A stretch of DNA of 64,000 bases from Candidatus Gastranaerophilales bacterium (GTDB lineage: Bacteria > Cyanobacteriota > Vampirovibrionia > Gastranaerophilales > Gastranaerophilaceae), in NCBI GenBank assembly GCA_944324405.1, contig CALUWF010000003.1:8890-72889 (forward strand). The letters run 5' to 3'. The translations under genes and the position numbers were made by a program. Positions within the stretch are counted from its first letter, which is position 1; every line of letters starts with the position of its first letter. This document shows, piece after piece, positions 8,022 through 61,249 of this stretch. Under the pieces are notes generated by a model. The model searched no databases, was not told the origin of the DNA, and was given only the letters and a program-made list of their open reading frames with translations.

Positions 8022-8661
8022 CTTTGACGAAAGTTTTAAAGAAACAAGGACAACTCCTCTCGGGCTTGAAATTCAATCATACAGCCATATTTTAGGTACC
8101 GATGAAGCGGGCAGAGGCCCTGCCGCAGGCGGAGTCTGGGCGGCGTGTGTTTGTTTTTTGAAAAATGATGTACAAAAAGAACTTTTAAAATTAAACGACT
8201 CTAAAAAACTCGGCGAAAAAACAAGAGAGGAGCTTTTTAATATAATCCGCGCAAACTCTGTCTGTTCAATAAAATCCGTTGATGTTGAAACGATTGAAAA
8301 AATTAATATTTTAAACTCGTCGCTTATGGCAATGAAGCTTGCAGCACTTGAAGTTTTAGAAAAAATTTCGCCACAGTCCCCGATTTTGCTTGTCGATGGC
8401 AACAAAACGGTGAAAAATTTAAAAATTGCACAAAAAACAATTGTAAAAGGCGACTCAAAATCCGCCTCAATTGCCGCCGCAAGCATTTTGGCAAAAGTTG
8501 AACGGGATAATTTTATGAAAAAAATTAACGAAGAATATCCTCAATACCTTTGGGCAAAAAACAAGGGGTATCTGACAAAAGAACATATTGAAGCCATTAA
8601 AAAATTCGGCATCACAAAATACCACAGAAAAAGTTTTTTAAAGAATATTTTAAACATATGA
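7987..8661 (+). CDS. rnhB: ribonuclease HII
   Basis: GTDEAGRGPAAGGVWAA catalytic motif, DSKKL, and IAAASILAKVERD. The listed start overlaps rbgA by 35 nt, so the true start is uncertain. Confidence 0.9.
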   Translation: MEKSLLKNPLFDFDESFKETRTTPLGLEIQSYSHILGTDEAGRGPAAGGVWAACVCFLKNDVQKELLKLNDSKKLGEKTREELFNIIRANSVCSIKSVDVETIEKINILNSSLMAMKLAALEVLEKISPQSPILLVDGNKTVKNLKIAQKTIVKGDSKSASIAAASILAKVERDNFMKKINEEYPQYLWAKNKGYLTKEHIEAIKKFGITKYHRKSFLKNILNI

Positions 8662-35022: not shown

Positions 35023-36801
35023 TTAAAAATTTTGCTGCATAATATTATGTGGCTGCACACGTTGCTCAATATCCGGAGTATCTATTTCAAATACGTGCGC
35101 TCTTAGCGGCCCTAAATCAACAGTTACGGAATTGTCGGATTTTTGGAAATAGCTCGGCTGGCTGTAATTGGGCAGAAGATTGTTCAATTCCTGCGTTTTT
35201 TTGAAGCCGGGTATTTCGATTTTTGCACTTCTTCTCATATTGGCATTTCTGTTTCCGATAAAGAGAAGTGTTTTGCCGTTTTTATGACGTGCGTAGGCAA
35301 TAACCTCGGGGTTATTTGTTTCAAGCTGAATAAACGAACCATGTTCAATTATATCTTTGTATTCAGGCTTAACTTTTCCGCTTCTTAAATCAAGAGATGT
35401 TTTTATAAAGTCTTTGATTTCCGGAAAATCGCCGCCCGGTTTTCTTGAGAAGTTAAATATATCAAGTCTGCCGGTGTGCACCGTACATTCATCATTATCC
35501 GTCTGCGAATTCGGGGCTTTAGCGTGATCATAAGGATATAAGAAATAATCACCCGTTTGGACACCGTCAATGTAATACGGGTTTACCATCGGAAGGGTTG
35601 CTTGCAGCGCAGTTGTAAACATTACCCAAGGCGCACCGCCATAATACATCGGGCTTTGGTCGTCGTGCGTTGTCATTGAACCGATTAAAGATTTAGGCTC
35701 ATTTTGCCTGTTTGACATTGCGATGTTTTCCCTCATATAGTCAAAAAGCTCATCCGCTTTTGTCCATTGATGAAGAATGTGGAACTGACCGTAATAAGAG
35801 TCAAAACCTGCCCTTAGTTGATCTTCGGGCCTGTCGTATGGCATATTGAGCTGCGGAGAGGCATCTTCATGGGTATAAGATTCTGCAAGCCAGCCGAATT
35901 GCGGATCCAGAGAATGAGAATAAGGAATAATAACATTCCAGAACTCAACGGGTTTTGCACGGGAAACATCAGCCCTTATGCCGTCTATTCCAAGTTCAAC
36001 ACAGGCATCAATATATTTTTTGTGCATATCAAGGAGATGAGGGTTTAATTTTCTTTCGCCTTCATTATCCCAGACTCTGAACATTCTGATATCCTGCCAG
36101 CCCTGCGGTGTTTTGTCCTGTCCGTCTTTTTCTTTTGCCATAAGTTCGGGGTGTCTTTTTGCAAAGTCAAGGCTTGCACAGGAGGGAAGGTCGAGCATAA
36201 CCGATATTCCGCGTTTGTGGCATTCGTCAATAAAGATTTTAAAATGATCCCAAGCACTTCCTTCCGTATTCGGGTCTTTTAAATTAGGGTCAACGGCAAG
36301 TTTTCCGTTGTCTTCCACAAATCTGTCGGGAGCATAAATTGAACCGGCGGTACCCATTGCAAGGGTTTTTCCGGTCGGATGAACAGGAAGGACATGCAAA
36401 GTATTTATGCCCATTGCTTTAATTTCATCCAGCCTTTCAATTGCATTTATAAAATTTCCTGTTTCTTCGCCAACCTGGACAAGCCCGTTGCCGTCCAAAT
36501 CTTTTGCGTTCATAATTCTTGGCACAACGCCCAAGATAGTGGCTTCGTTATTTTTAAGCATATCTTTAAAATGGTTTTCCCATTTTACGCCCGTTGTACT
36601 TTTTGCTTCCTCAATCGCAGCTACACTGTTTGCGGGAAGTATTTGGCTGTATTGTTTGATTATATATTTGGAAAGTAAAGGGTTAAATTCCGTATCGGCA
36701 CTTTGTACGGTATTTTGAGGCGTATCTTGTGCATTTTTCGCAACGGGTGCCTTAGCGAGATAAGAAAGGTATTTATTTAAATTTATATTATTTATTGCCA
36801 T
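35023..36801 (-). CDS. GH13 alpha-amylase-family enzyme
   Basis: AMGINTLHVLPVHP; CHKRGISVMLDLP; ELGIDGIRADVSRAKP (Asp278); FGWLAESY (Glu307); SMTTHDDQSP (Asp380). A GGAGG RBS lies inside the 3' end of the upstream gene. No signal peptide. Confidence 0.8.
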   Translation of the reverse strand: MAINNINLNKYLSYLAKAPVAKNAQDTPQNTVQSADTEFNPLLSKYIIKQYSQILPANSVAAIEEAKSTTGVKWENHFKDMLKNNEATILGVVPRIMNAKDLDGNGLVQVGEETGNFINAIERLDEIKAMGINTLHVLPVHPTGKTLAMGTAGSIYAPDRFVEDNGKLAVDPNLKDPNTEGSAWDHFKIFIDECHKRGISVMLDLPSCASLDFAKRHPELMAKEKDGQDKTPQGWQDIRMFRVWDNEGERKLNPHLLDMHKKYIDACVELGIDGIRADVSRAKPVEFWNVIIPYSHSLDPQFGWLAESYTHEDASPQLNMPYDRPEDQLRAGFDSYYGQFHILHQWTKADELFDYMRENIAMSNRQNEPKSLIGSMTTHDDQSPMYYGGAPWVMFTTALQATLPMVNPYYIDGVQTGDYFLYPYDHAKAPNSQTDNDECTVHTGRLDIFNFSRKPGGDFPEIKDFIKTSLDLRSGKVKPEYKDIIEHGSFIQLETNNPEVIAYARHKNGKTLLFIGNRNANMRRSAKIEIPGFKKTQELNNLLPNYSQPSYFQKSDNSVTVDLGPLRAHVFEIDTPDIEQRVQPHNIMQQNF

Positions 36802-39418
36802 TTACCCCTCCGCTTTCATTGTTGCCTTTTTTGTAAAGGTGTTCGTTTTTGACTTTTCCGAAAAATAACTGAGAAACAAGCGTAACGCCCATAACTGCCA
36901 AAGTTAGAGGCAGGAATATTCTCATCCAGTGTCTGTCGTTAAATTTCTGGCTGGCTGTTTCAAGGAATAAATTCGAAACAGGCTTTCCTATCATTGAATA
37001 TCTGATTTTTTGGTTAGCCGGCAAAGTCACGCCTGCTTTTGTGTGTCCTAATCTTGCATAATCAACGGTTGCATAATAAATTCTGTAGAAATTTTCCCTT
37101 GTTTGTCTTAAATTATCCAAAAGTGCACTGTCACAGCTTGAATAAGTAGAGGCACTTAAACCGTAGGGAATTCTTATTTCTTTATTTCCGTTAATTTTAA
37201 CTGTATAGTCAGATAAATTTTCAGAATGTCCGAAAATAAGATCAATGATTTTCGGCGCATAGTCGCCGTTTCCGCTGAAGTGGAATTTATTTGCAAGGTC
37301 GTTCATTGTACCGTCATATATTACACGGCGGCATTTTTCGATTATATCATCACTGAGAGTTTCATCGCCCGTCAGCTGTTTCCAGAAAGCTTCAAGCTCG
37401 CCCGTGTAAAGTCTTCTTTCAAAATCGGCGGCGAGAATATATCTGTGTCCGGTAGCCCTGATGCCGGCACCTTTATCTTCGACAAAAAGATCCACAACTC
37501 TTTTAAAGAGTGCTTCTCTTCTTAATTTTTCGGGAGCTATATCTTTTGATTGCAAGAATTTTACAAGTTCATTCTTGCTAAATTCTTTTCCGCCGTTATT
37601 TTTTACAATCTCATCGTATTCAACCCCGCAAACTTCTTTTACAAGGTCTTTTAGATAGTCCATATCCAAATCAATTTCTTTTTTATAGAAAGCAAGCGGA
37701 GAATTATCGGGAATTTTTTCAAAGAGCGAGCCTATCATACTGCCCGTTTTTTCTCTTATTTGCGTAATTAACTTATTAAGCGTAGTCGCTTCATATTTTG
37801 CTTGCCTTGAAGTTAAATCCGAAATAAAATCCGCATATTTAGCGTCATCTTTTACTATTTCAAAAAGGTGTTTTTGAAGAACTTCTTTTGCGGATTCGGT
37901 TGAACTTCTTGCCAAATCTAAATCATTTTGGGTTAGTTTCAGACTTTTCATAAATTCATTTAAAGAATTTAAGTGGATGCTTGTGTGTACGGATTCATAT
38001 TTTTGTCCGGCAAGTCCGTTTAAAAAGTCGCAAAGCGCCGAAACAGCAGCGCTGATTGGTTTTGTTTGTGTGTCATAAACAGTTTGTACGCCATTGGCAA
38101 ATTGTTCCGCAATTGCAGCGGGAACACGCTTATATTGCAGGCATTCGTTATATGCTTTGTTAAGTCTTGAAATTTCATTAGGATCGCTTGTATTTTTTAA
38201 TGCATTTTCAAAAATTTCATTAAAGCTTTTTACGCTCATATGCGTTTTTTTGTTGGCGGTCAATTTCGAAACTTTTTCCGCAATCTCTGTTTCAAAAGGC
38301 GATTTTATCGGATTTCCCTGTAAATCAACCACTTCCGAGCCCATTGCAGCACTTACCGTGGACATAATTTTTGAAGTGGGAATAGTGCCGTAATCTTTGT
38401 ATATTCCTTTTAATCTGTCGTAATTTTGTTGCAGCGCTTTATTGATTTTCGGGGCAGCTCCGCTTAATTCACTTATAACGTTTGCATCATCGGGATCACT
38501 TGAATGAAGCATTGCATGGAAAGGATCAAGAAGAGCGGAAGCTTGTCTGAAAAATTCTTCGTCAGGTTCACCGTCAAGCCTTTCGATAAGCTTTTTAAGT
38601 TCCTTTGTATCTTCGATATTAAACGTGCGGTCGATTAGTTTGTCATGTGCCGCTTTATCTATTTTTCCGATATTTTTTTGAATTTTATTATATTGGTTGT
38701 TAACAATATATTTAGTAACCCCTCTTTCGGCAAGGTTACATATCATAGAAGTTAAAAGCGGGCTAAATCCTGCCGTTAACATCCACAACGTATTGCCTTG
38801 GAGGGCGATTGTGCGCATTTTTTCTTTTGTAAGTTCGCGATAATCCGGAAGTGATTTATCTATGCCCAATTTATCCGCAACCCTGTCAATTTCTTCCTGA
38901 GAATATAAATCGGGAATAAATTGGTTATCAAGATAAAGTCTTTTTTTGCGGCCTTGCGCATCTACGTATTGCTGACGAATATCAAAGCCGTAGAGAAGTT
39001 TTAAAGGCTCTGATATAAGAAGTCTGGGCCATGCTGCCATTGAGGCAAAAAATGCGCCCGCACCGATGAATTCCATTATACCTTTTGTGCCTGTGCCGCG
39101 GCGTGTGAAAAGATAAGATGCAATACCCAAGCTGCCCAGTTTCATACCGAGATCATTAAATCTTCCGAGTTGATTATCGTTGGATTTACCCGTTACAAGA
39201 GCTTTACCGAGCTCCACTACATCCTTTCCGGTATCTGCCGCGCCTATTATTATGCTTGAAATCGGATTTCTGGTTTCTAAAAGGTAAGCGCGTTGCTCTT
39301 GAGGAGCGATTGAATTTGCATTTAAAACAAATGCTCTGTAAACATCCTGGCGTGCAATTGCCTGTCTGAGTTTTTCCTGTTGTGTGCTTTGAATTGAGGT
39401 GTTAATACTGTTATTCAT
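36788..39418 (-). CDS. 876-aa membrane protein, no recognisable family
   Basis: A hydrophobic hairpin lies near aa 90-135 (LGSLGIASYLF...IMEFIGAGAFFASMAAWPRLLI), with another segment near 205-225. The central region is long and helical-looking. The C-terminal anchor is WMRIFLPLTLAVMGVTLVSQLFF. Its start overlaps the upstream stop (TAATG). Confidence 0.6.
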   Translation of the reverse strand: MNNSINTSIQSTQQEKLRQAIARQDVYRAFVLNANSIAPQEQRAYLLETRNPISSIIIGAADTGKDVVELGKALVTGKSNDNQLGRFNDLGMKLGSLGIASYLFTRRGTGTKGIMEFIGAGAFFASMAAWPRLLISEPLKLLYGFDIRQQYVDAQGRKKRLYLDNQFIPDLYSQEEIDRVADKLGIDKSLPDYRELTKEKMRTIALQGNTLWMLTAGFSPLLTSMICNLAERGVTKYIVNNQYNKIQKNIGKIDKAAHDKLIDRTFNIEDTKELKKLIERLDGEPDEEFFRQASALLDPFHAMLHSSDPDDANVISELSGAAPKINKALQQNYDRLKGIYKDYGTIPTSKIMSTVSAAMGSEVVDLQGNPIKSPFETEIAEKVSKLTANKKTHMSVKSFNEIFENALKNTSDPNEISRLNKAYNECLQYKRVPAAIAEQFANGVQTVYDTQTKPISAAVSALCDFLNGLAGQKYESVHTSIHLNSLNEFMKSLKLTQNDLDLARSSTESAKEVLQKHLFEIVKDDAKYADFISDLTSRQAKYEATTLNKLITQIREKTGSMIGSLFEKIPDNSPLAFYKKEIDLDMDYLKDLVKEVCGVEYDEIVKNNGGKEFSKNELVKFLQSKDIAPEKLRREALFKRVVDLFVEDKGAGIRATGHRYILAADFERRLYTGELEAFWKQLTGDETLSDDIIEKCRRVIYDGTMNDLANKFHFSGNGDYAPKIIDLIFGHSENLSDYTVKINGNKEIRIPYGLSASTYSSCDSALLDNLRQTRENFYRIYYATVDYARLGHTKAGVTLPANQKIRYSMIGKPVSNLFLETASQKFNDRHWMRIFLPLTLAVMGVTLVSQLFFGKVKNEHLYKKGNNESGGVNGNK

Positions 39419-40470
39419 TATGCCACCTCGTATTCTTTATCAATATCTATCTGTGTATCAGGTTGATTTTGCGCAATTTTAAATCCGCGCGTAGCGTTGT
39501 AAATGCCAAGTATAGTCGAAGCCAGAGCACCGAATATCAATGTTCTTCCGACTATTTTTGAAGCATATTTAAACTTTATGTTGTTTCCGTTATATAAATC
39601 CAAGAAACTATCTCTTAAGGTAGTCGCAAAATTTCTTGCAAGTCCTTTTATTCTTTCCGATTTTGTTCCCTGAAGCGGCATTGAAATTTTATGTTCAAAG
39701 GGCTCTTGTGCGGCAAGGGCAACACCTAAAGCAGCCCAGAAATAAGAGCTTATGTATTTTGCCGATGTTGCTTTTATTATAATTTCTCTTACTTTTTCTT
39801 GAATAGTTTGATCGGGCGAGTTAAGAGGTTTTTTGAAGCCCATTTTTTTGGCTATTTTATCCCACCATAAAAATCTGTTTCCCTTTTGTTCGCCCATCTT
39901 ATTTATAAGGTCAAAGCGGGGAAAATCCGCACTTTCAAAGACTCTGTGATATTCAATTCTTGTTAAATCGGTATCTCCGGGATACTCGGGCAACTCAGTC
40001 ACCACTTTTTTATAAGGCATTTCAAGGTCAACCCCTGTTTTAAGCTGTACGCCTTTATTTATAAGTTTAGAGCCAAGCCATTTTCCTATTGCATAAAATA
40101 TAACCCCGTATGTCATTTTTCTGCCGGATATTGCGGCAAAATATCTGTCCGGGCTTCTAAATTTGGAGTTTGCAAGATTAAACAGAGCAATAAGCGCTGC
40201 CGAGCCTGTTATATTAGGTATTAGGCCCATTGATAAAAACTCGTAAAAATTAGAATTTCTGGAGCCGGCCATGCCTTTTGGAGCATATGTAAAAACACTG
40301 TTTACAAGTTTATCCGCAACAATTCTTGCTCCCGTAAGAGGTGTTTTTTTAATTATTCTGTCAGATGTGCTTGAAAGCTTTTTATGCGCTTCTTCAGAGG
40401 CATAGTAAGCGTTTTTAGGCATGTTTATAGATTTTACCTGACCTGTTTGCACTTTGTTATAGGACTCCAA
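39418..40470 (-). CDS. 350-aa polytopic membrane protein, no recognisable family
   Basis: About four hydrophobic segments (LSMGLIPNITGSAALIALFNLA, MTYGVIFYAIGKWLG, YISSYFWAALGVALAAQ, IVGRTLIFGALASTILGIY). The ORF-track start is TTG with no clear SD, so the start is uncertain. Confidence 0.55.
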   Translation of the reverse strand: MESYNKVQTGQVKSINMPKNAYYASEEAHKKLSSTSDRIIKKTPLTGARIVADKLVNSVFTYAPKGMAGSRNSNFYEFLSMGLIPNITGSAALIALFNLANSKFRSPDRYFAAISGRKMTYGVIFYAIGKWLGSKLINKGVQLKTGVDLEMPYKKVVTELPEYPGDTDLTRIEYHRVFESADFPRFDLINKMGEQKGNRFLWWDKIAKKMGFKKPLNSPDQTIQEKVREIIIKATSAKYISSYFWAALGVALAAQEPFEHKISMPLQGTKSERIKGLARNFATTLRDSFLDLYNGNNIKFKYASKIVGRTLIFGALASTILGIYNATRGFKIAQNQPDTQIDIDKEYEVA

Positions 40471-40621
40471 AAACTAACACACACATTAATGAAAAAGCCT
40501 GAATAAAATAATTTGTTACCAAATCATATAAAAATTTACATTGGTTAACAAATATTTTTGTTTTTCACCAACAACGTTACTAAATGTAGATAAATCCTTA
40601 GAAATTATGTAAAATAATTAT

Positions 40622-42973
40622 ATGGAAACATCTGATTTTCAATTTAGTAATGAAATTATAGACAAAATAAATCTTTTTTACAACTCGCCGGATGAGCTAT
40701 TGCTTTTGTGCGGTTTTTCAGGTTGTGCAAAATCGGAAATCCTAAACAAAACTTTAGAAAATCCCGGTGACGACACCCTTGTATTCAGGCATTTATGCTT
40801 TGAATTCACTACAATCGATGATTTTCTTTTAAATTTTTACGACTCTTTCAGAAAATTTTCGCTTGAAAAAAAAGTAAGCCTTAAAAAAACCATGGGCGAA
40901 AGTTTTAAAAACAAAGTAAGTTTTTATTTTAAAAACATAGATAAAAAATGCATTATAGCCCTGGATAATTTTGAACTTGTCGAAAACAATACCGAAATTT
41001 TAAACTTTTTATCCCACATTGCAAGTTTTGAAAATGTAAAATTAGTTCTTGTTTCAAGGGATAAAAACATTGATTTTTTCATTAATGCGGGTTTGGCGGC
41101 GCAAATAATCGAAATTCATCCGGATTCAAAAGAAGTTTTTAACCAAAAAATACAAAGCGAAGGGATTGAAATCGACAAAAAAACTCTTGATGAATTTTAC
41201 GAACTGAGCGAAGGACATCAGCTTTATTTAAGGATGGTTTTAAGATACTCTCAAATAACCGGACTTAAAATATCCGAACTTTTAAACGAATTTAAAAAGC
41301 GAAACGAAACATTTGGCGATTTTGTGACTTTAAAGCTTGTTTCCCTTGTGCCTGTTGTTTATTTTGATTTTTTAAAAAATTTAAGCGCACTAAACCATCA
41401 AGTCAGCCCTGATTTTATACAAAACTACAATCTCGGCGACACAAGACAGATTGAATATCTGGAAAGAAATTATCTTATTTCAAAAGTCGATAATGAAATT
41501 ATTTTAAGAAATTATTTTAAGAAACATTTTCTAAATACTCTGTCACTTCAAGAAAAATACAGAATTTTTACAAAATTGTGCGAAATTTATGAACAAGAAC
41601 TTGCAAAAAGCCCGCGCGACAGGCTTTTAAGACTATCAAGAGAAAGTATCAGAAAACAAATAGAAACCGTAAAGAAAAATATCCCGACTCTCGGGCGCCA
41701 AACAAAAATTACTCAGGATAATTTTTCCTACATTTCTTTATCACAAGAAGGTTCCAATCCCTGGTTCAACAAAAAAGAAATGGATAGAAAACAAAGATAT
41801 CTGGATAAAAAAAGAGAACTTCAAAACAAAAAACTGAGTGTAAAAAAAGAATTTATGAGCGAAGAAGATGCAAATTTGCTCAGAGAATACAGGAGAAAAA
41901 AATACGAACGGGAACAGATTGAACGTATTGAAAACAGAGAGTTTGATTTCCTTGAAGAGTTTAAAAAAGCGGATGAGCTTGAACAAAATTACCAATACGC
42001 ACAGGCAAACGAAATTTTATCAAAATTAAAAAGCAAAACGGACGATGAGAAAACAAAAATAGAAATTCTTGAGCACCTTGCGCACAACAGCGAAAAACTG
42101 AACAATTTTGAAAATGCCCTTGATTATTATACGCAAGCCTGTTCACTGCACCTTTTAACAGGTGATTACGAAAAATATTTCAGAACCCTCCTTGAAGTGG
42201 CAGCTCTTTATAAAAATCTCTACAGATTTGCAAGCGCAAAAGAAGAATATCTGAAAATAATCAACAGCGACAAAATTTTTGATAATTACGTAAAGACAAC
42301 GGCATATCTTGGCCTGGGGGATATTTTTGAAAGCGAAAACTCTATCGCGCAAGCACTTAAATATTATAGACTGGCGGGAGATTTTGCGGATGAAAATGAT
42401 ACAGCTTCTCTTTGCGAAATTTATTATAAAACCGCAATTTTATATGATGATATGCAGGATTTTGATAATGCGGAAGAATTTTATTTAAAAAATATAAATT
42501 TAACAAATGACAGCGCAAAAAACAGATGGTACTCGCAAAGCTGCATAAATTTGGGACTTATATACTCTTATCAAAACAATATTGATGATGCAAAAAAATA
42601 CATTACTCTTGCACTTGAAAAAGACAGAGCGGACGGCAACCCCTCGGGCATATATTTTGCTTCGCGCGAACTTTCCAAAATTTACGAAAATGAAAATTTT
42701 GATATTGCACGCGAATACATACAAGAAGCCCTGAATTGCGCAAAAGAACTGCATGACGAATTTAAAGAAGCTTTTGCCTATCTTGAATTAGGGGATTTGA
42801 ATTATAATTACAATCAGGATGAAATTGCTCTTGAGTGTTTCTTTGAAGCCAAAAAAGTACTCGGGGCTAATATTTTAAAAGAAAACGAACAAATAATTAA
42901 CCAGAGAATAAACGATATGAAAGTAAAAATGCTGCCTGCCGTTTTTAAAAGGATTGAAGAAAAATATGTTTAA
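40622..42973 (+). CDS. STAND/AAA-like NTPase fused to TPR repeats
   Basis: Walker-A-like LLLCGFSGCAKSEIL, Walker-B-like KKCIIALDNFE, sensor-like VKLVLVSRD, and LSEGHQLYL at the position of the STAND GxP motif. A K/E/R-rich linker follows, then about 330 aa of TPR-like repeats (ALDYYTQA, AKEEYLKI, ALKYYRLA, AEEFYLKN, AKKYITLA, AREYIQEA). Confidence 0.6.
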   Translation: METSDFQFSNEIIDKINLFYNSPDELLLLCGFSGCAKSEILNKTLENPGDDTLVFRHLCFEFTTIDDFLLNFYDSFRKFSLEKKVSLKKTMGESFKNKVSFYFKNIDKKCIIALDNFELVENNTEILNFLSHIASFENVKLVLVSRDKNIDFFINAGLAAQIIEIHPDSKEVFNQKIQSEGIEIDKKTLDEFYELSEGHQLYLRMVLRYSQITGLKISELLNEFKKRNETFGDFVTLKLVSLVPVVYFDFLKNLSALNHQVSPDFIQNYNLGDTRQIEYLERNYLISKVDNEIILRNYFKKHFLNTLSLQEKYRIFTKLCEIYEQELAKSPRDRLLRLSRESIRKQIETVKKNIPTLGRQTKITQDNFSYISLSQEGSNPWFNKKEMDRKQRYLDKKRELQNKKLSVKKEFMSEEDANLLREYRRKKYEREQIERIENREFDFLEEFKKADELEQNYQYAQANEILSKLKSKTDDEKTKIEILEHLAHNSEKLNNFENALDYYTQACSLHLLTGDYEKYFRTLLEVAALYKNLYRFASAKEEYLKIINSDKIFDNYVKTTAYLGLGDIFESENSIAQALKYYRLAGDFADENDTASLCEIYYKTAILYDDMQDFDNAEEFYLKNINLTNDSAKNRWYSQSCINLGLIYSYQNNIDDAKKYITLALEKDRADGNPSGIYFASRELSKIYENENFDIAREYIQEALNCAKELHDEFKEAFAYLELGDLNYNYNQDEIALECFFEAKKVLGANILKENEQIINQRINDMKVKMLPAVFKRIEEKYV

Positions 42974-43595
42974 TAAAGAAAATCTTGAACTATTAAAAAA
43001 AGAATTTAATATTGAATTGAACAATAATACCATTGAAAGATTAAATGCTTGGCATAAACTCTTTCTGAATTACAATTCTCACACAAATTTGATGAGCGCA
43101 AACGATATAAACGTACTTTTTGAAAAACATGTTTTTGATTCGCTTGCAATTTTAAAATGGAAAGAGTTTGACCCGCATAAAAAACAAAAAATTCTTGATG
43201 CAGGTACGGGCGGAGGTTTTCCTTCGGTTATTCTGGCGCTTTTTTTCCCGGAACTTGAAATTGTGGCAAACGATTCAAGGATAAAAAAAATTAACTTTAT
43301 AATAGATTTAAAGGCCGAACTTGATATTCAAAATTTAAAAATTTCATACGCAAGAGTAGAGGATTTAGAGTCTCTTAACTGTGATATTGTAATTTCACGA
43401 GCCGTTGGCACAATTAAAAACGTTTTAAGACTTACAAAAAAACATATTAAAGAAGGCGGATATTTTATAATCTATAAATCAAAAAATCTTCAAAAAGAAC
43501 TCGATGAAATTAAAGATATAAATGCAAAAATAGTTAGCTATAATCTGCCTTTGAGGGAAAATTTTGAAAGACACCTTGCAATAATTAAAATGTAG
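42954..43595 (+). CDS. rsmG: 16S rRNA (guanine527-N7)-methyltransferase RsmG (GidB)
   Basis: HTNLMSANDINVLFEKHVFDSL, the SAM motif ILDAGTGGGFPSVILALFFP, and SRAVG. It overlaps the upstream gene by 20 nt. Confidence 0.85.
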   Translation: MKKNMFNKENLELLKKEFNIELNNNTIERLNAWHKLFLNYNSHTNLMSANDINVLFEKHVFDSLAILKWKEFDPHKKQKILDAGTGGGFPSVILALFFPELEIVANDSRIKKINFIIDLKAELDIQNLKISYARVEDLESLNCDIVISRAVGTIKNVLRLTKKHIKEGGYFIIYKSKNLQKELDEIKDINAKIVSYNLPLRENFERHLAIIKM

Positions 43596-47235: not shown

Positions 47236-49275
47236 TTACACCGCTCTTGGGTTTATGGTGATTGCATCTGCGTATTCATCAAGTATTGCGGGATTTACTT
47301 TAGAAGCCTGAGGCGCAACCATAACCTGTCCTTTTATATCATATTTATCCTCAACCGCATTTTTTAGCTCTGGAGTTGTGGTAACAAGACCGGTTTGGGT
47401 ATCCACACATTTAAGGACATTTGCTCTTTCAAAGTCCTCAAGCGGGAAATCGCCGGAAGCGATTTGCATTGTCGTGTGGTAAAGCTGGTTCAAGCTGCCG
47501 CAATCAGCCCAAGGTTCATCTGTCGGAACTGCAAGGATTTTTTGATTTCCGAGAATTGCCTTAGCATTTGCAATTGCATCAAGAGGAATATCCTGCTCAT
47601 CCATATCTACAATTTTTGCCAGCTCTTCTCTGATTTCTTCCGGGCTGTCTTTTTGAGTAAGCTGCATTAAAACGGGAGTAAGGCATTTAGACCAATCTCT
47701 GGGCTCTTTTCCGCTGCCTGCCGGGAAATAAGGAAGCAAAGCATTAAGCGCATCAAAAGCTTCTTCGCTCACTGCAAACTGGAATGTATTTGCCATACAT
47801 TTTCCTTCGGGAGAAATCAAGCTCTTTGAAGGATTTTTCGGCTTTTCAACAAACTCAAGAATTTCATTGTTATCGCCAAGCCTCATAATACCGAAATCCT
47901 TTGCAAGAGAAGGATCTACTTCTTTTGCAATCATTACCATCGCGGCCTGTTTTGAATCAATGAGTTCTTTTGTTTTTTTCATTGCGCCGGTAACGCGTGA
48001 AATCGGATCATTTGGAAGAATTAAAAGGTTTGTTCTTCCGCTTCTTGCCATTTTATCGTACATATCAAGCGTAAAGCCGCCGTTTCCTTTATTTACGCCG
48101 GATTTATTCAAATAGAATTTAACGTTTTTACCTATGCCGAAAACACCTTTTGTACAGTCTAAAAGTCCTGCATTATGAAGGGTAATAAAAGTTGTTTCCA
48201 TAGGAGTCAAGCCGGTCGGAGTTCTGAATGCCCCTTTTGTTGATTGAGCACCGTTTGCCTTGCCATGGAAAATACCGTCGGATGATGCGTTTGTATATTC
48301 AGCACGGGAACCAAAACCGCCCGCGAGCATAGCGATTTGAGTTTTATCTGCATCAGGTGCGGCATAAAAAGTATCAAGGACTATTTCTCCGTCATTAATT
48401 TTACGTTCAAATTCCGCTATGCTGTCAATAATTTCGGGAACAAAACGTCCGTCTTCCATACCGATGACAATTTCCGTACCTTTGCCTTGTGATTCCTGCG
48501 GATGTCTTTCTCTGACTTCTTGCGGCGCTGCGACAAAAGGAGTGTATACATTACCACCTTTGTCGGCATCAACTTTTAAACCGCCAAAAAGGCTGCTTTT
48601 CTTTTCAATGTGTCCGGTGTCCGTCATAAGAACATATCTGTTCAGATAGTCTTCGTTATCTTCCACAACCGCCATCAAATTACCTTTTGTATTTAATACA
48701 TAAGCTCTCTCACTCATAGGTACTTCAAGCTTAGAATCAGGCGTTGCCGTAATTTTTATGTCCTGCTTAAGGGGCAGCGATAAATCCGCGATGCGTTTTG
48801 GATCTCTTGGCATACGCACCGCCATTTGGTATAAAAGGTCTAAACCCTGACTTTTTATCTGGGTTCTTGCTTCGGTAAATAAATTATTTGCCTTATCTTC
48901 GGATACTACAATATTTGTTTTTACCGCATCTTCAAACTTGGGCAGAGAATCCGAAAATTTGTCTATAAGATCTGAAACAGGCATTCTGAAACCTACTTTT
49001 TCGCCCATTTTGCCATTATCCGGGTCTGCGCAGGTAAGGATTTCAAGGTTCATTTCACCAAAAGCTTCCTGCAAAGATATTCCGCCCGTAAAGCTTAGTG
49101 TTTTTGCGGTTTTAATGCCGTTAAGCGCCTGATAAGCACTTGCAAGTTTTGCGGCAGAAGTCTTTGCGCCTTGAAATTCTACTACGTTATTTTGCCTTAT
49201 CGGCGAAGTTGCGGCGCTTGCCTGTTTTATTGTGCCGTTGTAATTCACAGGATTTAAATTAAGTTTGTTTATCAT
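47236..49275 (-). CDS. sugar-1-phosphate nucleotidyltransferase (GlgC/GalU-like fold) with about 300-aa unknown N-terminal extension
   Basis: It has the G-rich loop IAMLAGGFGSRAEY. It also has GIMRLGDNNEILEFVEKPKNP (an EKP motif) and EPWADCGSLNQLYHTT (a W-x-D-x-G motif). The first 300 aa or so have no motif I recognise. Confidence 0.55.
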   Translation of the reverse strand: MINKLNLNPVNYNGTIKQASAATSPIRQNNVVEFQGAKTSAAKLASAYQALNGIKTAKTLSFTGGISLQEAFGEMNLEILTCADPDNGKMGEKVGFRMPVSDLIDKFSDSLPKFEDAVKTNIVVSEDKANNLFTEARTQIKSQGLDLLYQMAVRMPRDPKRIADLSLPLKQDIKITATPDSKLEVPMSERAYVLNTKGNLMAVVEDNEDYLNRYVLMTDTGHIEKKSSLFGGLKVDADKGGNVYTPFVAAPQEVRERHPQESQGKGTEIVIGMEDGRFVPEIIDSIAEFERKINDGEIVLDTFYAAPDADKTQIAMLAGGFGSRAEYTNASSDGIFHGKANGAQSTKGAFRTPTGLTPMETTFITLHNAGLLDCTKGVFGIGKNVKFYLNKSGVNKGNGGFTLDMYDKMARSGRTNLLILPNDPISRVTGAMKKTKELIDSKQAAMVMIAKEVDPSLAKDFGIMRLGDNNEILEFVEKPKNPSKSLISPEGKCMANTFQFAVSEEAFDALNALLPYFPAGSGKEPRDWSKCLTPVLMQLTQKDSPEEIREELAKIVDMDEQDIPLDAIANAKAILGNQKILAVPTDEPWADCGSLNQLYHTTMQIASGDFPLEDFERANVLKCVDTQTGLVTTTPELKNAVEDKYDIKGQVMVAPQASKVNPAILDEYADAITINPRAV

Positions 49276-54275: not shown

Positions 54276-54858
54276 TAAAGTAATAATAATCGACTATGGC
54301 GCGGGAAACGTAAAAAGCCTGGGCAATATGCTTGAATATCTCGGCAGAGATTATGAAATAACTGACGAGAAGGAAAAAATCCTGAAGGCAAAAAAAATAA
54401 TTTTCCCGGGTCAGGGGCATTTTGAGCAGGCGATGAACAAACTAAACGCAAAAAATCTTCCCGAAACAATAAAAAAATCCATTGATAACGGGGTAGATTT
54501 CCTTGGGATTTGCCTTGGTTTGCAGGTTTTGTTTGAAAAAAGCGAAGAAGCACCCAATACTAAAGGGCTTGGAATTTTTAAAGGCGAAGTTAAAAAATTT
54601 CAAACGGGCAAAACTCCCCAAATTGGCTGGAATAATATTAAGACAACAAAAAATAACACCTATTTAAATGATGATTATTTTTATTTTGTCAATTCTTATT
54701 ACGTCATTGCGGAGGATGAAAGCATAATAAGCTCATATACAAATTATCACATTGATTTTTGTTCATCAATTGAAAAAGAAAACGTCTGCGCACTGCAATT
54801 CCATCCGGAAAAAAGTTCAAACGCCGGAATAGAATTTTTCAAAAAATGGCTTATGTAA
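54265..54858 (+). CDS. hisH: HisH-type glutamine amidotransferase (imidazole glycerol phosphate synthase subunit-like)
   Basis: VIIIDYGAGNVKSLGNML, FPGQGHF, GICLGLQVLFE (catalytic Cys), and QFHPEKS. 11-nt overlap with the aminotransferase. Confidence 0.8.
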   Translation: MSNNKVIIIDYGAGNVKSLGNMLEYLGRDYEITDEKEKILKAKKIIFPGQGHFEQAMNKLNAKNLPETIKKSIDNGVDFLGICLGLQVLFEKSEEAPNTKGLGIFKGEVKKFQTGKTPQIGWNNIKTTKNNTYLNDDYFYFVNSYYVIAEDESIISSYTNYHIDFCSSIEKENVCALQFHPEKSSNAGIEFFKKWLM

Positions 54859-56767
54859 TATCATAAAATTCATCGAGCGCCGCTATAAATTCATCCGTTA
54901 ATTCTTCGGAATACTTTTTGCCCGACTGGCGCTTAATCTCTTCCACGGCTTCTTCTTTTGTATAAGCACGTCTGTATGGTCTGTCCGATATCATTGCAAA
55001 ATACGAATCAACAATTAAAATAATTTGAGAAGTTATGGGAATTTCTTCCCCTTTTATTTGATTAGGGTAACCGCTTCCGTCCCAGTTTTCATGGTGATGC
55101 TCAATTATCGGAATAACATCCGAGATATTTGTAATAGGTTTTAAAATCTCTCTTGCAGCCAAAAGCGGATGCTCGACGATTTTGTCTTTTTCTTCTTTTG
55201 TTAAAGGAGCCGGCTTTTTAAGGATTTCATCAGGGAGCATGGTATTTCCGATATCATATAATAAAATTGCAATTTTAAGCTTGTCAATTTCCGATTTTGA
55301 AAGTTTAAATTTCTTTGCAACAAGTGTTGCAAGCGACATTTTTGCCTTTGTAACACCCTCTTGATTGGATGAAGTATAAGTTTGTGAAATGGTATCCACA
55401 ACGGAATATAAAAGCTCCTGTGCCGAGTTTCCTTTTACGTTTTCCTGGCGGGTTTGCAGCTTTTGCGAAAGCTCAAGAGCGAGTTTAGAGTTAAATGGTA
55501 TTCTGTGTTTTTCAAGAATTTCAACAAAGGCGCTCACCGCAACATCCTGCCAGGATACGTTTTTCTGCGGCTGGGCAATACAAACTCTGTTTCTGCCCTG
55601 CATTTTTGCATCATACATTGCCTTATCCGACATTTCAATCAAATCATCAAGATCTAATGTATGCTCTATAAAAGTTGCAACCCCGATACTTGCGGTAACG
55701 TTTCCAAGACCTTCTACGGGCTCTTTTTCAATTGAGGCTCTGAGCCTCTCTGCTGCTATCATGCCGCCTTTTGCATCAATACCGGGAAGAATTATTGAAA
55801 ACTCTTCGCCGCCTATACGGGAAGCGATATCGACCGAACGCGCGTTTCTTAAAATTACCCTTGCAACGGTTGAAATCGCTCTATCGCCCATAGAGTGCCC
55901 GTAGGTATCATTTATTTGTTTTAGGTGATCCAAATCAAGCCCGATAAGAGTAAAAGGCTGATTTAAACGCAATGCGCGGTTTGCCTCACGCTCGATTGCA
56001 TCATCAAAAAATCTTCTGTTGAAAAGCTCTGTCAGGGGATCTGTTACTGCTTGCTTTTTAACAGTTTCAAAAAGATTTGCAATTGTAATTGCAAGTTCAA
56101 TTTGCCGGGCAAAAAGATTTAAGAAATTAAGCTCGTCGTCTTTTGCTTCAACCCTGGGTGAAAAAACCGCCAAAAAGCCCGTAAATTCCTTTGAAGCAAC
56201 AAGCGGCAGAATTATGACGGACTTTGTAAAAGTTTTTCTTGATATTTCGCGCGCAGTTTCTTCATCAAGCTCCGGAAAGGCCTCGGTTAAAATCGCAAAT
56301 ATATCCGTAAAGACAACTGCTGTTTTATTTTCAATAGCTTCTTGAATTTTGCCGTCTTTTTTAATTTTTAACTTAACATCAAAAATTGACTTTCCGACAA
56401 ACTCTTCAAGCCTTTGAGAAAATTCGTTTTTCAGATAAGTTCTGAGTGAATAAAAAACCCCGTCTTTATCCAGCTGCTTTTGGACAATACAACTGTAGAG
56501 ATAACCAAACTCACCATGCAGCGAAGAAACAATCGTTTCAAGAACGTTAGAGAGCGGACGCGATGAATTCATCATATCCCACACATGTTCTAATGTGAGC
56601 AGCGTTTGATTTGCTTTGTGGAGTTCTTCGGTGCGCTGCGCGATTTCACGCTCTAAAGCCTGATTGCGTTGATAAACTTCAAGATAATCTCTTTTATGCT
56701 GGTATATCTGGCTTTCTACGCGTTTTAGATTTTCGTTTGATGCTTTAATCCAGTCAAAAAAACCCAT
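54851..56767 (-). CDS. GAF-like sensor + GGDEF diguanylate cyclase + HD-GYP phosphodiesterase fusion
   Basis: DPLTELFNRRFF...GLDLDHLKQINDTYGH...RIGGEEFSIILPG (GGEEF). The C-terminus has HHHENWDGSGYP (HD-GYP). Confidence 0.85.
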   Translation of the reverse strand: MGFFDWIKASNENLKRVESQIYQHKRDYLEVYQRNQALEREIAQRTEELHKANQTLLTLEHVWDMMNSSRPLSNVLETIVSSLHGEFGYLYSCIVQKQLDKDGVFYSLRTYLKNEFSQRLEEFVGKSIFDVKLKIKKDGKIQEAIENKTAVVFTDIFAILTEAFPELDEETAREISRKTFTKSVIILPLVASKEFTGFLAVFSPRVEAKDDELNFLNLFARQIELAITIANLFETVKKQAVTDPLTELFNRRFFDDAIEREANRALRLNQPFTLIGLDLDHLKQINDTYGHSMGDRAISTVARVILRNARSVDIASRIGGEEFSIILPGIDAKGGMIAAERLRASIEKEPVEGLGNVTASIGVATFIEHTLDLDDLIEMSDKAMYDAKMQGRNRVCIAQPQKNVSWQDVAVSAFVEILEKHRIPFNSKLALELSQKLQTRQENVKGNSAQELLYSVVDTISQTYTSSNQEGVTKAKMSLATLVAKKFKLSKSEIDKLKIAILLYDIGNTMLPDEILKKPAPLTKEEKDKIVEHPLLAAREILKPITNISDVIPIIEHHHENWDGSGYPNQIKGEEIPITSQIILIVDSYFAMISDRPYRRAYTKEEAVEEIKRQSGKKYSEELTDEFIAALDEFYDIT

Positions 56768-58172: not shown

Positions 58173-58430
58173 ATGTCCACAAATTTTAACGTAAAATCTT
58201 TCGGCTTAAATGTAATTCCCGATTTAAAACAAGGAAGACAAGCAGCACACACCGTCGAAAAAGCGATTGGGGACATGTGGGAGCCTGTGCTTGATTATCT
58301 TGCCACAAATGAAAATGTCTTTAGCGGGGATGTCGCAAAAGAAATTAATAAAATTAACATTCAGACCATGCAGCTGGGCACAATTGTAAACGGGGATAAA
58401 GAAACGCGTAATCTGGATACGCAGTTTTAA
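58173..58430 (+). CDS. hypothetical 85-aa protein
   Basis: Strong AAGGAGA RBS 8 nt upstream. An extended -10-like TGTTATAAA lies about 35 nt upstream. No motif recognised. Confidence 0.45.
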   Translation: MSTNFNVKSFGLNVIPDLKQGRQAAHTVEKAIGDMWEPVLDYLATNENVFSGDVAKEINKINIQTMQLGTIVNGDKETRNLDTQF

Positions 58431-60118
58431 ATAATTTCAGTCCTTTCAATAAGTTTGCAGCCGTCTTTAGAGTAGGTTGAAACAATATTTTTACCGTTAT
58501 TTTTTGAATGATACAGTGCAGTATCCGCGGCATTAATAAGTGTTTTAGGGTCAACCCCGTCATAGGGATACTGCGCAACACCTATACTTGTGGTAGGTGA
58601 AATTGTAGTAGTTTCATTTGCTGCAACCGTAATTTTTGAAATATTTTTTCTTAAACGCTCAGCTATGACAACAGCGTCATCTTTTGTAGTTTCCGGCAAT
58701 ATTACGACAAATTCTTCACCGCCGTAGCGCGCCGGGATATCAATTTTGCGAACCGTTTCCGCTATGACGCGTGAGAGTTCTCTTAAAATCTGATCGCCGA
58801 TTAAGTGTCCGTATGTATCATTTACGTTTTTAAAATTATCAATATCGAGCATTAAAAGCGACATATCACGCTTGTATCTTGCACAGCGGCGTATTTCATT
58901 TTCAAGCAGCGTATAAAAATGGCGATAAATATAGAGTTTTGTAAGTCCGTCTTTTGTGGCAAGCTCGTATAACTTTGCGTTGTCAATTGCAATAGCTGCC
59001 TGATTTGCAAGAGATGTCATAAACTCTAAATCCTTTTGGTTAAAGAGTTTACCGTTTTTCTTATTTGTAATGTTTATAACCCCTATTGCTTCACCCTTTG
59101 CAATTAAAGGCACGCACAAAAGCGAGTGGGTATTTGTTAAGATATCTTTTACGATAAACCTCGGGTCGGCAGAGCCAAGGTTTGTAATAATGGGCTTTCT
59201 CTCCAAAAATACCATGCCTGCAACGCCTTCGCCCGCTTTGATTTTGGAGCATTGAATAATGCCGTTATTGATACCTTCTTCTACCTTTTTGTCCTGCAAA
59301 CCGTAGACAACCCGCACTTGCAGAGAGTTCTGCGAATAATCATACAGCATAAGCGAGCCTTTTTCCGCCTCCAGCGTGTCAATTGCCTTAGACAAAATAA
59401 CCTGTAAAAGGCGTTTTAAGTCGTCAATGAAATTAACAGCCTGGGAAATATTATAAAGAATTGAAATATTATAAAGCGACTTTTGAAGCTTTATAATCTC
59501 ATGCTCTTTTTTAAGGTCATTTAAATATTTGCCTATTATAGGCTCTACATAATCAAAAGCAATGTCAAGCATTTGCCTTTGCTCATCCGTAAGGGATTTA
59601 AAAGTATCACTCAAACCTATAAAACAAAAACACACGGGAACGCCGTTTGAAAAAAATGCTCTTAAATACTTGGGCTTAAGTTTTTCAAGTCCGTTCTTTT
59701 CCCAAAATGAAGCATACAAAATATCGCCGTGTTCATTTCTTGCATCGACAATTTTTCCTTCATTTATTGCACTTAAAAAAGCTTCGTTATCCTGCTCGGA
59801 TTCAAAACACTCATCCGCACGAAGGTTTTGAGCCGTAACAACGCTTTTAAAAATCTGCCCTTCTAAAATGTAAAATGAGATATTTTCATTGTTAATAAGT
59901 TTAACAATGTAATCAGACAATTTTTTTAAAAGGTCATAAACACCAAGAGCCTGGTTAGCAATAGTACTTATATCAAACATTCTGCTCAGGTGAACGACAT
60001 TATTTTCAATATTTGAGATTTCGTTATTGTTTGACATTGTTGCCCAAATATACATTCTGGTAATATTATAAGATAACATGTGGTAAAATACAATTTTCAC
60101 CACCCTTAAAATACACAA
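58427..60118 (-). CDS. GAF-domain diguanylate cyclase (GGDEF)
   Basis: The GAF-like region is GSLMLYDYSQNSLQVRVVYG...GEGVAGMVFLERKPIITN...LCVPLIAKGEAIGVINITN. It also has DGLTKLYIYRHF...LMLDIDNFKNVNDTYGH...RYGGEEFVVILPET. An internal Met (60037) is a more plausible start. Confidence 0.85.
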   Translation of the reverse strand: MCILRVVKIVFYHMLSYNITRMYIWATMSNNNEISNIENNVVHLSRMFDISTIANQALGVYDLLKKLSDYIVKLINNENISFYILEGQIFKSVVTAQNLRADECFESEQDNEAFLSAINEGKIVDARNEHGDILYASFWEKNGLEKLKPKYLRAFFSNGVPVCFCFIGLSDTFKSLTDEQRQMLDIAFDYVEPIIGKYLNDLKKEHEIIKLQKSLYNISILYNISQAVNFIDDLKRLLQVILSKAIDTLEAEKGSLMLYDYSQNSLQVRVVYGLQDKKVEEGINNGIIQCSKIKAGEGVAGMVFLERKPIITNLGSADPRFIVKDILTNTHSLLCVPLIAKGEAIGVINITNKKNGKLFNQKDLEFMTSLANQAAIAIDNAKLYELATKDGLTKLYIYRHFYTLLENEIRRCARYKRDMSLLMLDIDNFKNVNDTYGHLIGDQILRELSRVIAETVRKIDIPARYGGEEFVVILPETTKDDAVVIAERLRKNISKITVAANETTTISPTTSIGVAQYPYDGVDPKTLINAADTALYHSKNNGKNIVSTYSKDGCKLIERTEII

Positions 60119-60998: not shown

Positions 60999-61249
60999 AA
61001 AAAAGGAAATGCCAAGGCTGCAAAGAATTAAAGGACGCTAATTTAATGCATAAAATTACGCGCGAATTTAAAAGCGGCAAACTCTACCTTAATCCCGGCC
61101 CGAAAGTTTTGGGCAGAAGCGCCTATGTTTGCAAAAACAAAGAATGCATAAAAGAATTTTTAAAAAGAAAAACTCTTAAAAAAGTGCTAAAGACAAATGA
61201 AACATCACAAATAGAACAAGAGCTTTTAAAAATCATTATTGAGGGTTAA
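60995..61249 (+). CDS. ylxR: YlxR/DUF448-family RNA-binding protein
   Basis: KRKCQGCKELKDANLMHKITR...GRSAYVCKNKECIKEFLKRKTLKKVLK matches the R-x-C-x-x-C...L-x-R...GRG-x-Y-x-C pattern of YlxR. ATGA overlap with the methyltransferase. Confidence 0.65.
   Translation: MKKRKCQGCKELKDANLMHKITREFKSGKLYLNPGPKVLGRSAYVCKNKECIKEFLKRKTLKKVLKTNETSQIEQELLKIIIEG

Follow-up and report, generated by a model that had tools for sequence, protein, structure and literature searches.

Two probable membrane proteins without a recognised family are translationally coupled to a divergent GH13 enzyme in Melainabacteria

To our knowledge, the well-described routes of polysaccharide export all use enzyme classes other than glycoside hydrolase family 13 (GH13); we know of no bacterium in which it has been described how alpha-glucans, such as glycogen-like polymers of the capsule or surface, cross the cytoplasmic membrane, and of no bacterial GH13 enzyme with dedicated membrane subunits. 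Here, a window of 64,000 nucleotides (nt) was analyzed from a Candidatus Gastranaerophilales bacterium (assembly GCA_944324405.1, contig CALUWF010000003.1, positions 8,890 to 72,889), a member of the Melainabacteria (Vampirovibrionia), which form the sister group of cyanobacteria, do not photosynthesise and are common inhabitants of animal guts. Three consecutive minus-strand genes of this window encode two probable membrane proteins of 350 and 876 amino acids (aa) and a divergent GH13 enzyme of 592 aa. The described enzymes closest to the latter are AmyB of T. neapolitana (4gkl), the T. maritima maltosyltransferase (1gju), 3dhu of L. plantarum and GlgE (GH13_3), with which it shares the (beta/alpha)8 core and the Asp-Glu-Asp triad, but only 20-35% local identity. 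It adds an N-terminal extension of 72 aa, it lacks the N-terminal domains of GlgE as well as its KKYQDIY stretch and, unlike the enzymes of this group, it is encoded together with membrane partners. An earlier reading of the window, made from the letters alone (the original prediction), had seen a membrane-associated alpha-glucan module in these genes, and this is supported by the results presented here. We consider it likely that the two proteins form a membrane complex with the GH13 enzyme docked to it and that this complex handles alpha-glucan.

The gene triad is conserved and translationally coupled. A genome scan with the 876-aa protein retrieved relatives in 409 species-level genomes, of which the best 80 were inspected. 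Their loci are labelled as Gastranaerophilales, Melainabacteria, cyanobacteria, Vampirovibrio or "uncultured bacterium", with the addition of five metagenome-assembled genomes (MAGs) that are labelled otherwise. Adjacency to GH13 had been set beforehand as a check of the original prediction, and in 89 of 90 loci the GH13 gene directly follows the 876-aa homolog on the same strand, the sole exception being a locus that stops at the contig edge; it likewise adjoins the membrane-protein homologs in six distant environmental loci (GC 0.40-0.53), where the full triad was recognised with hidden Markov models (HMMs) of the families. A homolog of the 350-aa protein lies directly upstream in 86 of the 90 loci and the remaining four begin at a contig edge. 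In 84 of 86 related loci, the 350-aa and 876-aa genes are spaced by -7 to +2 nt, and in 86 of 89 the 876-aa and 592-aa genes by -17 to +6 nt; the tight junctions are not due to chance, since the genes overlap or abut with near-constant spacing across related loci. Altogether, the triad order and its tight junctions were present in essentially all related loci with an adequate contig (~100 loci, distant environmental lineages included). In a metagenome scan with the GH13 profile, every true ortholog was accompanied by its partners wherever the contig reached, while in ~60 outgroup GH13 loci, which served as a control, no partner genes were found within 10 kb.

In the window, the junction between the 350-aa and 876-aa genes reads gcaTAATGaat, with a 1-nt stop/start overlap preceded by GAGGTGG, and the junction between the 876-aa and 592-aa genes reads GGAGGggtaaATGgcaataaaTAA, with a 14-nt overlap and GGAGG located 5 nt ahead of the ATG. 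The sequence thus bears out both the TAATG overlap at 39418 and the GGAGG of the GH13 gene inside the 3' end of the 876-aa gene, as they had been described in the original prediction. As a consequence of this coupling, the three proteins would be made in fixed proportion. The description of three stitched minus-strand genes held with regard to their coordinates and had to be amended in two respects: a fourth gene downstream, encoding a 1356-aa protein, had been overlooked, and the start of the 350-aa protein is probably the GTG at 40455 (giving 345 aa), which matches the starts of the homologs in the alignment.

Between the most distant members of the gut clades, the GH13 enzymes are ~50% identical, the small proteins 36-40% and the large ones 26%; across the whole class, the GH13 enzyme keeps 50-60% identity. 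A profile of the small protein searched with HMMER against 1.84 billion representatives (clusters at 50% identity) returned only 232 proteins at E <= 0.001, and the family is therefore lineage-restricted. The five otherwise labelled MAGs (L024, L027, L035, L048, L084) are recorded as Gammaproteobacteria or Muribaculaceae; each has a full Melainabacteria-type locus, including rsmG and a gene for an AAA-TPR protein, and their labels are probably taxonomic mislabels.

The 592-aa protein is a remote member of its family. The Pfam Alpha-amylase model (PF00128) scores 13.6 bits on it vs. a cutoff of 22, while distant orthologs reach 23.8 bits. When the family profile was compared with PDB, it matched AmyB (4gkl, 4e-22), the T. 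maritima maltosyltransferase (1gju, 2e-20), 3dhu (5e-19), and GlgE (1.7e-15). Six residues (D204, R276, D278, E307, H379, D380) are invariant in 29 orthologs, including the catalytic Asp278/Glu307/Asp380 named in the original prediction, and they line up with regions II-IV of solved GH13 enzymes; against AmyB, 3dhu and GlgE, the alignment takes in regions I-III. Region I reads DLPSCAS, in which the usual His is absent and a Cys is placed as in the DFALQCS of GlgE. An identity with GlgE was considered and rejected, given that the GlgE match is weaker than those to AmyB and the maltosyltransferase and the alignment covers the core only; the stretch PPKKYQDIY of GlgE corresponds to TPQGWQDIRMF, which resembles AmyB and 3dhu. 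As far as can be judged from sequence comparison, the 592-aa protein appears to be an active alpha-1,4-glucan hydrolase or transferase distinct from GlgE, and to represent a new, deep-branching member of GH13.

The 592-aa enzyme lacks a signal peptide, as the original prediction had stated, a feature that gains meaning from a sister paralog. In Gastranaerophilaceae, a second GH13 protein of 516 aa (L110:9905-11455, L114:9917-11467, L112:4675-6207, as well as L111 and L113) is 39% identical to the operon enzyme and has a classical Sec signal peptide; no membrane partner genes occur within 10 kb of these five loci. The signal peptide stands immediately ahead of the motif WKNDLRT.FLNN, which is found at aa 73-85 of the operon enzyme, so that the sister carries its Sec signal exactly where the operon enzyme has its extension. 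Since the lineage exports such enzymes via Sec, the operon enzyme is read as cytoplasmic and its 72-aa extension as a candidate docking element. Short N-terminal peptides are also conserved in pairs within a clade (orthologs L027-L090): 'MRTNLIQSY' of the large subunit resembles 'MI..TNLI..K' of the GH13 enzyme, and 'MILPVSNF..KNLSFK' of the small subunit resembles 'M.LSI.K....NL.FKG' of the 1356-aa protein. In the window, they start at 40455, 39418, 36801, and 34913, and could be docking or targeting signals.

The two membrane proteins were compared with known families and folds at the levels of sequence, profile and structure, a check that had likewise been set beforehand, and neither could be placed in a characterised family with Pfam, NCBIfam, PDB profiles or Foldseek on PDB. 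Neither the 350-aa nor the 876-aa protein had a match in Pfam or NCBIfam, and no recurrent family emerged when 54 and 44 aligned family members were searched individually against Pfam (E 0.1). The family alignment of the small subunit comprises 111 clusters, the named ones being all Gastranaerophilales, and that of the large subunit 81 clusters, which carry neither a Pfam domain nor a name. AlphaFold2 models built from these alignments reached a pLDDT of 78.9 and a pTM of 0.72 for the small protein and 78.2 and 0.63, respectively, for the large one. Foldseek gave no fold match in PDB (best E 0.069 for the small and 0.13 for the large protein, TM ~0.1), the profile of the small family had no real match among PDB sequences (best 0.24), and nothing in Pfam, NCBIfam or PDB folds connects the pair with ATP-binding cassette (ABC) or secondary transporters, be it with their permeases or their ATP-binding cassettes. 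The models thus suggest two new protein families, confidently modelled, whose folds would be unmatched in PDB. Some apparent matches were discarded. The top Foldseek match of the small subunit, a dynamin-like protein pair (E 0.069, TM 0.11), is not significant and no conserved GTPase motif is present; the PDB matches of the large subunit (the ZorA tail with E 0.002, apolipoproteins, designed helical bundles) reflect composition and coiled coils, are confined to the variable helical region and have no Foldseek counterpart.

The pair is related by descent. By hhalign, the small protein (aa 33-283) and the large one (aa 40-259) align over 212 columns (E 3.6e-5, probability 71%), and cross-family HMM matches in distant lineages go down to 2.9e-12. 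Two similar strings behind the hydrophobic hairpins had been taken in the original prediction as a hint of distant paralogy; both are paired with each other in the hhalign alignment, and the cross-family matches agree, which argues for the two proteins being paralogs. In the small subunit, aa ~138-235 form a conserved loop domain of alpha/beta type. In the large protein, DSSP of the AlphaFold model assigns helix to nearly all of the central ~600 aa, which had been described as helical in look; this poorly conserved domain is possibly extracytoplasmic. Across lineages, the large protein ranges in length from 524 to 1286 aa. At the upper end, the homolog of locus L092 (11301-15161, 1286 aa) is matched twice by the family HMM (profile positions 22-671 and 248-813), and the helical domain is therefore duplicated in that lineage.

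Family-averaged hydropathy outlines four conserved hydrophobic segments in the small protein (78-96, 119-137, 236-258, 306-324) and three in the large one (117-135, 211-229, 835-853), together with a weaker one at 86-105. These agree with the four segments that had been proposed for the 350-aa protein and with the hairpin, the segment near aa 205-225 and the C-terminal anchor proposed for the 876-aa protein, the first helix of the hairpin being the weaker one. In both proteins, two paired helices are followed by a third and by a C-terminal anchor, at positions that correspond between the two. The family-averaged Kyte-Doolittle peaks are 1.0-1.7, and because the segments are only marginally hydrophobic, both proteins are regarded as probable membrane proteins. 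Lys and Arg (K/R) are abundant at the C-termini and in the loop that precedes helix 3, which suggests an inward orientation of these parts. The safest topology would place the conserved N-terminal domain in the cytoplasm, let helix 3 lead out, leave the variable domain outside and bring helix 4 back.

Table 1. Features of the operon and its immediate surroundings, with positions in the window
Feature	Position	Strand	Basis or remark
Small subunit, probable membrane protein, 350 aa	39418-40470	-	Open reading frame (ORF); TTG start; family alignment
Large subunit, probable membrane protein, 876 aa	36788-39418	-	ORF
Divergent GH13 enzyme, 592 aa	35023-36801	-	ORF; without signal peptide
Giant second GH13, 1356 aa	30843-34913	-	ORF; fourth consecutive minus-strand gene
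Signal-peptide protein without family, 222 aa	30171-30839	+	Convergent on giant GH13; 3 nt between stop codons
AAA_22 + TPR (MalT-like TPR) protein, 783 aa	40622-42973	+	Divergent from operon; overlaps rsmG/gidB
Divergent intergenic region, expected site of operon promoter	40471-40621	.	Between small-subunit and AAA_22 + TPR genes
Putative C-terminal anchor helix of large subunit, aa 833-854, most hydrophobic segment in operon	36857-36922	-	Hydropathy
Large-subunit region aa 40-259, homologous to small-subunit aa 33-283, holds invariant residues G77...P220	38642-39301	-	hhalign
Large-subunit all-helical domain, aa ~230-832, poorly conserved, between hydrophobic helices 3 and 4	36923-38731	-	DSSP of model
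N-terminal extension of operon GH13, aa 1-72, in place of the sister's Sec signal	36586-36801	-	Paralogs L110-L114

Further alpha-glucan enzymes have been recruited repeatedly to the triad locus (Table 1). The giant GH13 protein, which follows the 592-aa gene after a spacer of 109 nt, has large insertions and no signal peptide, its residues D271, R789, D791, E839, H963, and D964 are invariant, and the closest matches of its profile are maltogenic amylase, neopullulanase and cyclomaltodextrinase (5e-14). Of the 90 loci, 32 contain it, and it reappears, divergently placed, in L094 and L095, two of the distant loci; in all, it was seen beside the triad in three separate contexts. By hhalign, no kinship was found between it and either the large subunit or the 592-aa enzyme. 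A GlgA-type glycosyltransferase of family 5 (GT5) stands beside the triad in two distant loci (L091:15409-17925 (+), 838 aa; L095:9975-12659 (-), 894 aa), with matches to TIGR02095 (3e-27) and to glycogen synthases in PDB (6e-9); it is unusually long, with an insert of ~270 aa. In L091, there is a 4-nt overlap between its gene and the GH13 stop, whereas in L095 it is convergent. No match was obtained in the metagenome scan for GlgA-like GT5.

The AAA_22 + TPR gene overlaps rsmG (gidB; 42954-43595 (+)) by 20 nt, a pairing that is kept in 30 loci, and co-occurs with the extended cluster, while the gene of the signal-peptide protein (222 aa) accompanies the giant GH13 in a subclade. The link of the AAA_22 + TPR gene to the operon is uncertain, and since Pfam detected no DNA-binding domain in its product, a role as regulator is unproven. 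Genes flanking the operon include rpoB, rpoC1, and rpoC2; this split rpoC, together with the names given to homologs, assigns the window to Gastranaerophilales. Neither promoter nor terminator scans of the operon region performed better than on shuffled sequence; no terminator-like site was seen in the 109-nt spacer, and a promoter-like TTGTTA-17-TATGAT lies at 40551-40523(-), such matches being no commoner than expected by chance in the intergenic region. In 20-21 of 26 loci of the clade without the giant GH13 (e.g., L008:7661-8875; L032-L090), a PTPS gene and uppP/bacA stand directly upstream in the same orientation, which may be plain synteny or an envelope link; no other glycan genes recur around the triad in this clade, and the genes downstream are unrelated housekeeping genes.

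Several genes elsewhere in the window were also recorded. A GH57 enzyme of 754 aa (Pfam 2.3e-50), from an alpha-glucan-active family, is encoded at 61226-63490 (-), ~21 kb from the operon, and a 679-aa protein with a weak central NTP_transferase match (1.4e-8) at 47236-49275 (-), next to dnaJ, as it is in L004. Two proteins of GAF-GGDEF type, one of them extended by an HD domain, are encoded at 54851-56767 (-) and 58427-60118 (-), so that the organism has cyclic di-GMP (c-di-GMP) signalling, which often controls exopolysaccharide systems. Flagellar genes occur ~25 kb from the operon (flhA at 8650-10740, probable fliH and fliG, fliF at 12497-14203), while fliJ, fliK, flgD, and flgE adjoin the triad in L006 (6443-8568) and L091 (3575-7482). 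A flagellar link, to which vaguely flagellin-like N-termini might also have pointed, was dismissed as a probable coincidence, since it has no profile support and the contexts differ elsewhere.

We propose that the 350-aa and 876-aa proteins, as paralogs, would be the subunits of a complex in the cytoplasmic membrane that is specific to this lineage. Each would consist of a conserved N-terminal domain, most likely facing the cytoplasm, followed by two anchoring helices, and in the large subunit these two helices would flank the fast-evolving helical domain of ~600 aa, which hydropathy and the K/R distribution place probably outside. The GH13 enzyme, presumably a catalytically competent alpha-1,4-glucan transferase or hydrolase, would be retained in the cytoplasm and would dock onto the conserved cytoplasmic domains, most likely via its 72-aa extension. 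With the enzyme docked on the cytoplasmic side of a membrane complex, alpha-glucan would be handled at the inner face of the membrane. The chains may be built or transferred by the GH13 enzyme, together with the GlgA-like GT5 where present; the eight hydrophobic helices might form a passage, and the helical ectodomain of the large subunit might guide the chain in the way of a polysaccharide co-polymerase. The nearest solved GH13 relatives, being transferases or maltogenic enzymes, speak for this reading, as do the coupling of the GT5 gene and the co-polymerase-like build of the large subunit. That the complex hands cytoplasmically made alpha-glucan outward is put forward as a tentative proposal, with the balance leaning against its holding in full. 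We are somewhat more doubtful about the most specific version, a new kind of polysaccharide translocation machine in which a paralogous heterodimer forms the passage and a GH13 transglycosylase feeds alpha-1,4-glucan into its cytoplasmic mouth or receives it there.

A number of observations weigh against this proposal. On the Hessa scale, the helices sum to +2.3 to +6 kcal/mol, with the C-terminal anchors scoring best, and are thus marginal for membrane insertion; the turn of the first hairpin is K/R-rich as well, at odds with a simple four-pass topology, and it is only by inference that the three proteins are brought into contact as one membrane complex. GlgE, the polymerising enzyme, is a more distant relative of the 592-aa enzyme than the AmyB-type enzymes are, and the core triad includes no outer-membrane component, no nucleotide-sugar enzyme and no energising ATPase. 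GT5 adjacency is limited to two of ~8 distant loci and never occurs in the gut clades. Lastly, the giant GH13 looks degradative (neopullulanase/cyclomaltodextrinase) and fits catabolism at least as well as export, as does the MalT-like TPR region of the divergent gene.

Several other readings of the locus were weighed against these data. The pair could form or gate an entry for malto-oligosaccharides, which would be released by the secreted sister amylase and processed on entry by the docked and the giant GH13 enzymes. The Sec-exported sister is indeed present in the same lineage, the nearest relatives of the giant GH13 are cytoplasmic neopullulanases, cyclomaltodextrinases and maltogenic amylases, the host organisms are gut fermenters, a variable ectodomain could bind substrate, and the divergent gene combines a MalT-like TPR region with an AAA domain; however, this gene and the giant GH13 each occur in only one third of the loci, the GlgA-like GT5 beside the GH13 gene in L091 and L095 is biosynthetic, and the membrane pair has neither similarity to any transporter family or fold nor an energy-coupling component at its side. 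Uptake and catabolism of this kind seem fairly unlikely to us. Slightly less credit still is given to a scaffold that would fix glycogen-remodelling enzymes, and perhaps granules, to the inner face of the membrane without anything crossing the bilayer. It would be the simplest reading of the recruitment of a soluble enzyme, considering that the GH13, the giant GH13 and the GT5 are all devoid of signal peptides, that the best-conserved parts of both membrane proteins are their putative cytoplasmic domains and that marginally hydrophobic helices could be monotopic. What it leaves unexplained is the helix-bracketed domain of ~600 aa, kept in every lineage and yet fast-evolving and variable in size, and our literature search gave no precedent for membrane-tethered bacterial glycogen enzymes. 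Export, import and simple tethering would each be compatible with the present evidence.

Two further readings detach the pair from the handling of glucan. Its function might be unrelated to glucan altogether (e.g., in the envelope or in cell shape), the GH13 being a co-regulated passenger or a non-enzymatic structural partner, and the position of the triad among housekeeping genes (rpoB and rsmG in the window, uppP/bacA in another clade) would suit such a role. We hold this to be improbable, as the catalytic residues are invariant across the class, translational coupling is kept through the whole depth of the lineage and further alpha-glucan enzymes joined the triad independently in distant lineages. 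Least probable of all, in our judgement, is that the pair moves or anchors the GH13 enzyme, and with it the giant GH13, to the cell surface by a non-Sec route, with the N-terminal peptides as signals. The lineage uses ordinary Sec signals for such enzymes, Foldseek on PDB showed nothing akin to holins, pore-formers or the translocators of type III systems, and the ADP-glucose-type GT5 that is translationally coupled to the GH13 gene in L091 must act in the cytoplasm. It is nevertheless true that the closest paralog is an exported enzyme and that N-termini are shared between the large subunit and the GH13 enzyme ('M.TNLIQ / MI..TNLI') and between the small subunit and the giant GH13 ('...N.SFKG'); N[LIVM][LIVM] occurs within the first 12 residues in 58% and 38% vs. 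a background of 12%, figures that come from related sequences and are not independent counts.

Among known machineries, the proposed complex shares its logic with synthase-dependent secretion (cellulose Bcs, alginate Alg8/44, Pel, PNAG Pga), in which an enzyme at the cytoplasmic face is combined with a passage through the inner membrane, with an accessory protein that reaches into the periplasm, as proposed here for the triad, and with a glycoside hydrolase in the operon. Those systems have an embedded GT2, c-di-GMP receptors, TPR/porin parts in the outer membrane and periplasmic hydrolases, whereas the core triad has none of these and its enzyme belongs to GH13; neither a GT2 nor a porin was found in the triad or its conserved neighbours, where the only adjacent glycosyltransferase is the soluble-type GT5 of the two distant loci. 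The large subunit also recalls the polysaccharide co-polymerases Wzz/Wzc, with two putative anchoring helices around a long, mainly helical, fast-evolving domain and a K/R-rich tail. It differs from them in having no Pfam match to Wzz, no Foldseek match to solved Wzz/Wzc structures and no kinase domain, and in an extra conserved N-terminal domain that is common to its small paralog, so the resemblance is architectural only. For a protein of GH13 fold as the obligatory partner of a membrane subunit, a precedent exists in SLC3 (rBAT/4F2hc) with SLC7; that system is eukaryotic, and its GH13-like part is an inactive ectodomain with a membrane helix of its own, while the 592-aa enzyme keeps its catalytic residues and has no membrane segment. 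The maltose system of E. coli (the MalT regulon with MalFGK2, MalQ, MalP, MalZ) likewise joins cytoplasmic alpha-glucan enzymes to a membrane step, and a MalT-like TPR protein is encoded next to the triad; an ABC transporter, a permease fold and a binding protein, however, are absent from the triad locus.

Full-text searching of the literature returned no description of the triad operon. Because the membrane pair has no counterpart among curated families, PDB folds, transporters or the parts of synthase-dependent systems, the module would fall outside the known kinds of systems. The relatives of the 876-aa protein in 409 species-level genomes and the lineage restriction of the family imply that the function of the module bears on the basic physiology of the poorly understood Melainabacteria, and the locus offers a compact candidate for testing, with three co-translated genes, an enzyme whose chemistry can be assayed and, in the partnerless secreted paralog, a natural control. 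If the complex does nothing but tether its enzyme, it would still comprise two new families with unmatched folds and the first bacterial GH13 with dedicated membrane subunits; if the translocation reading is true, it would be the first dedicated route of alpha-glucan across a bacterial cytoplasmic membrane.

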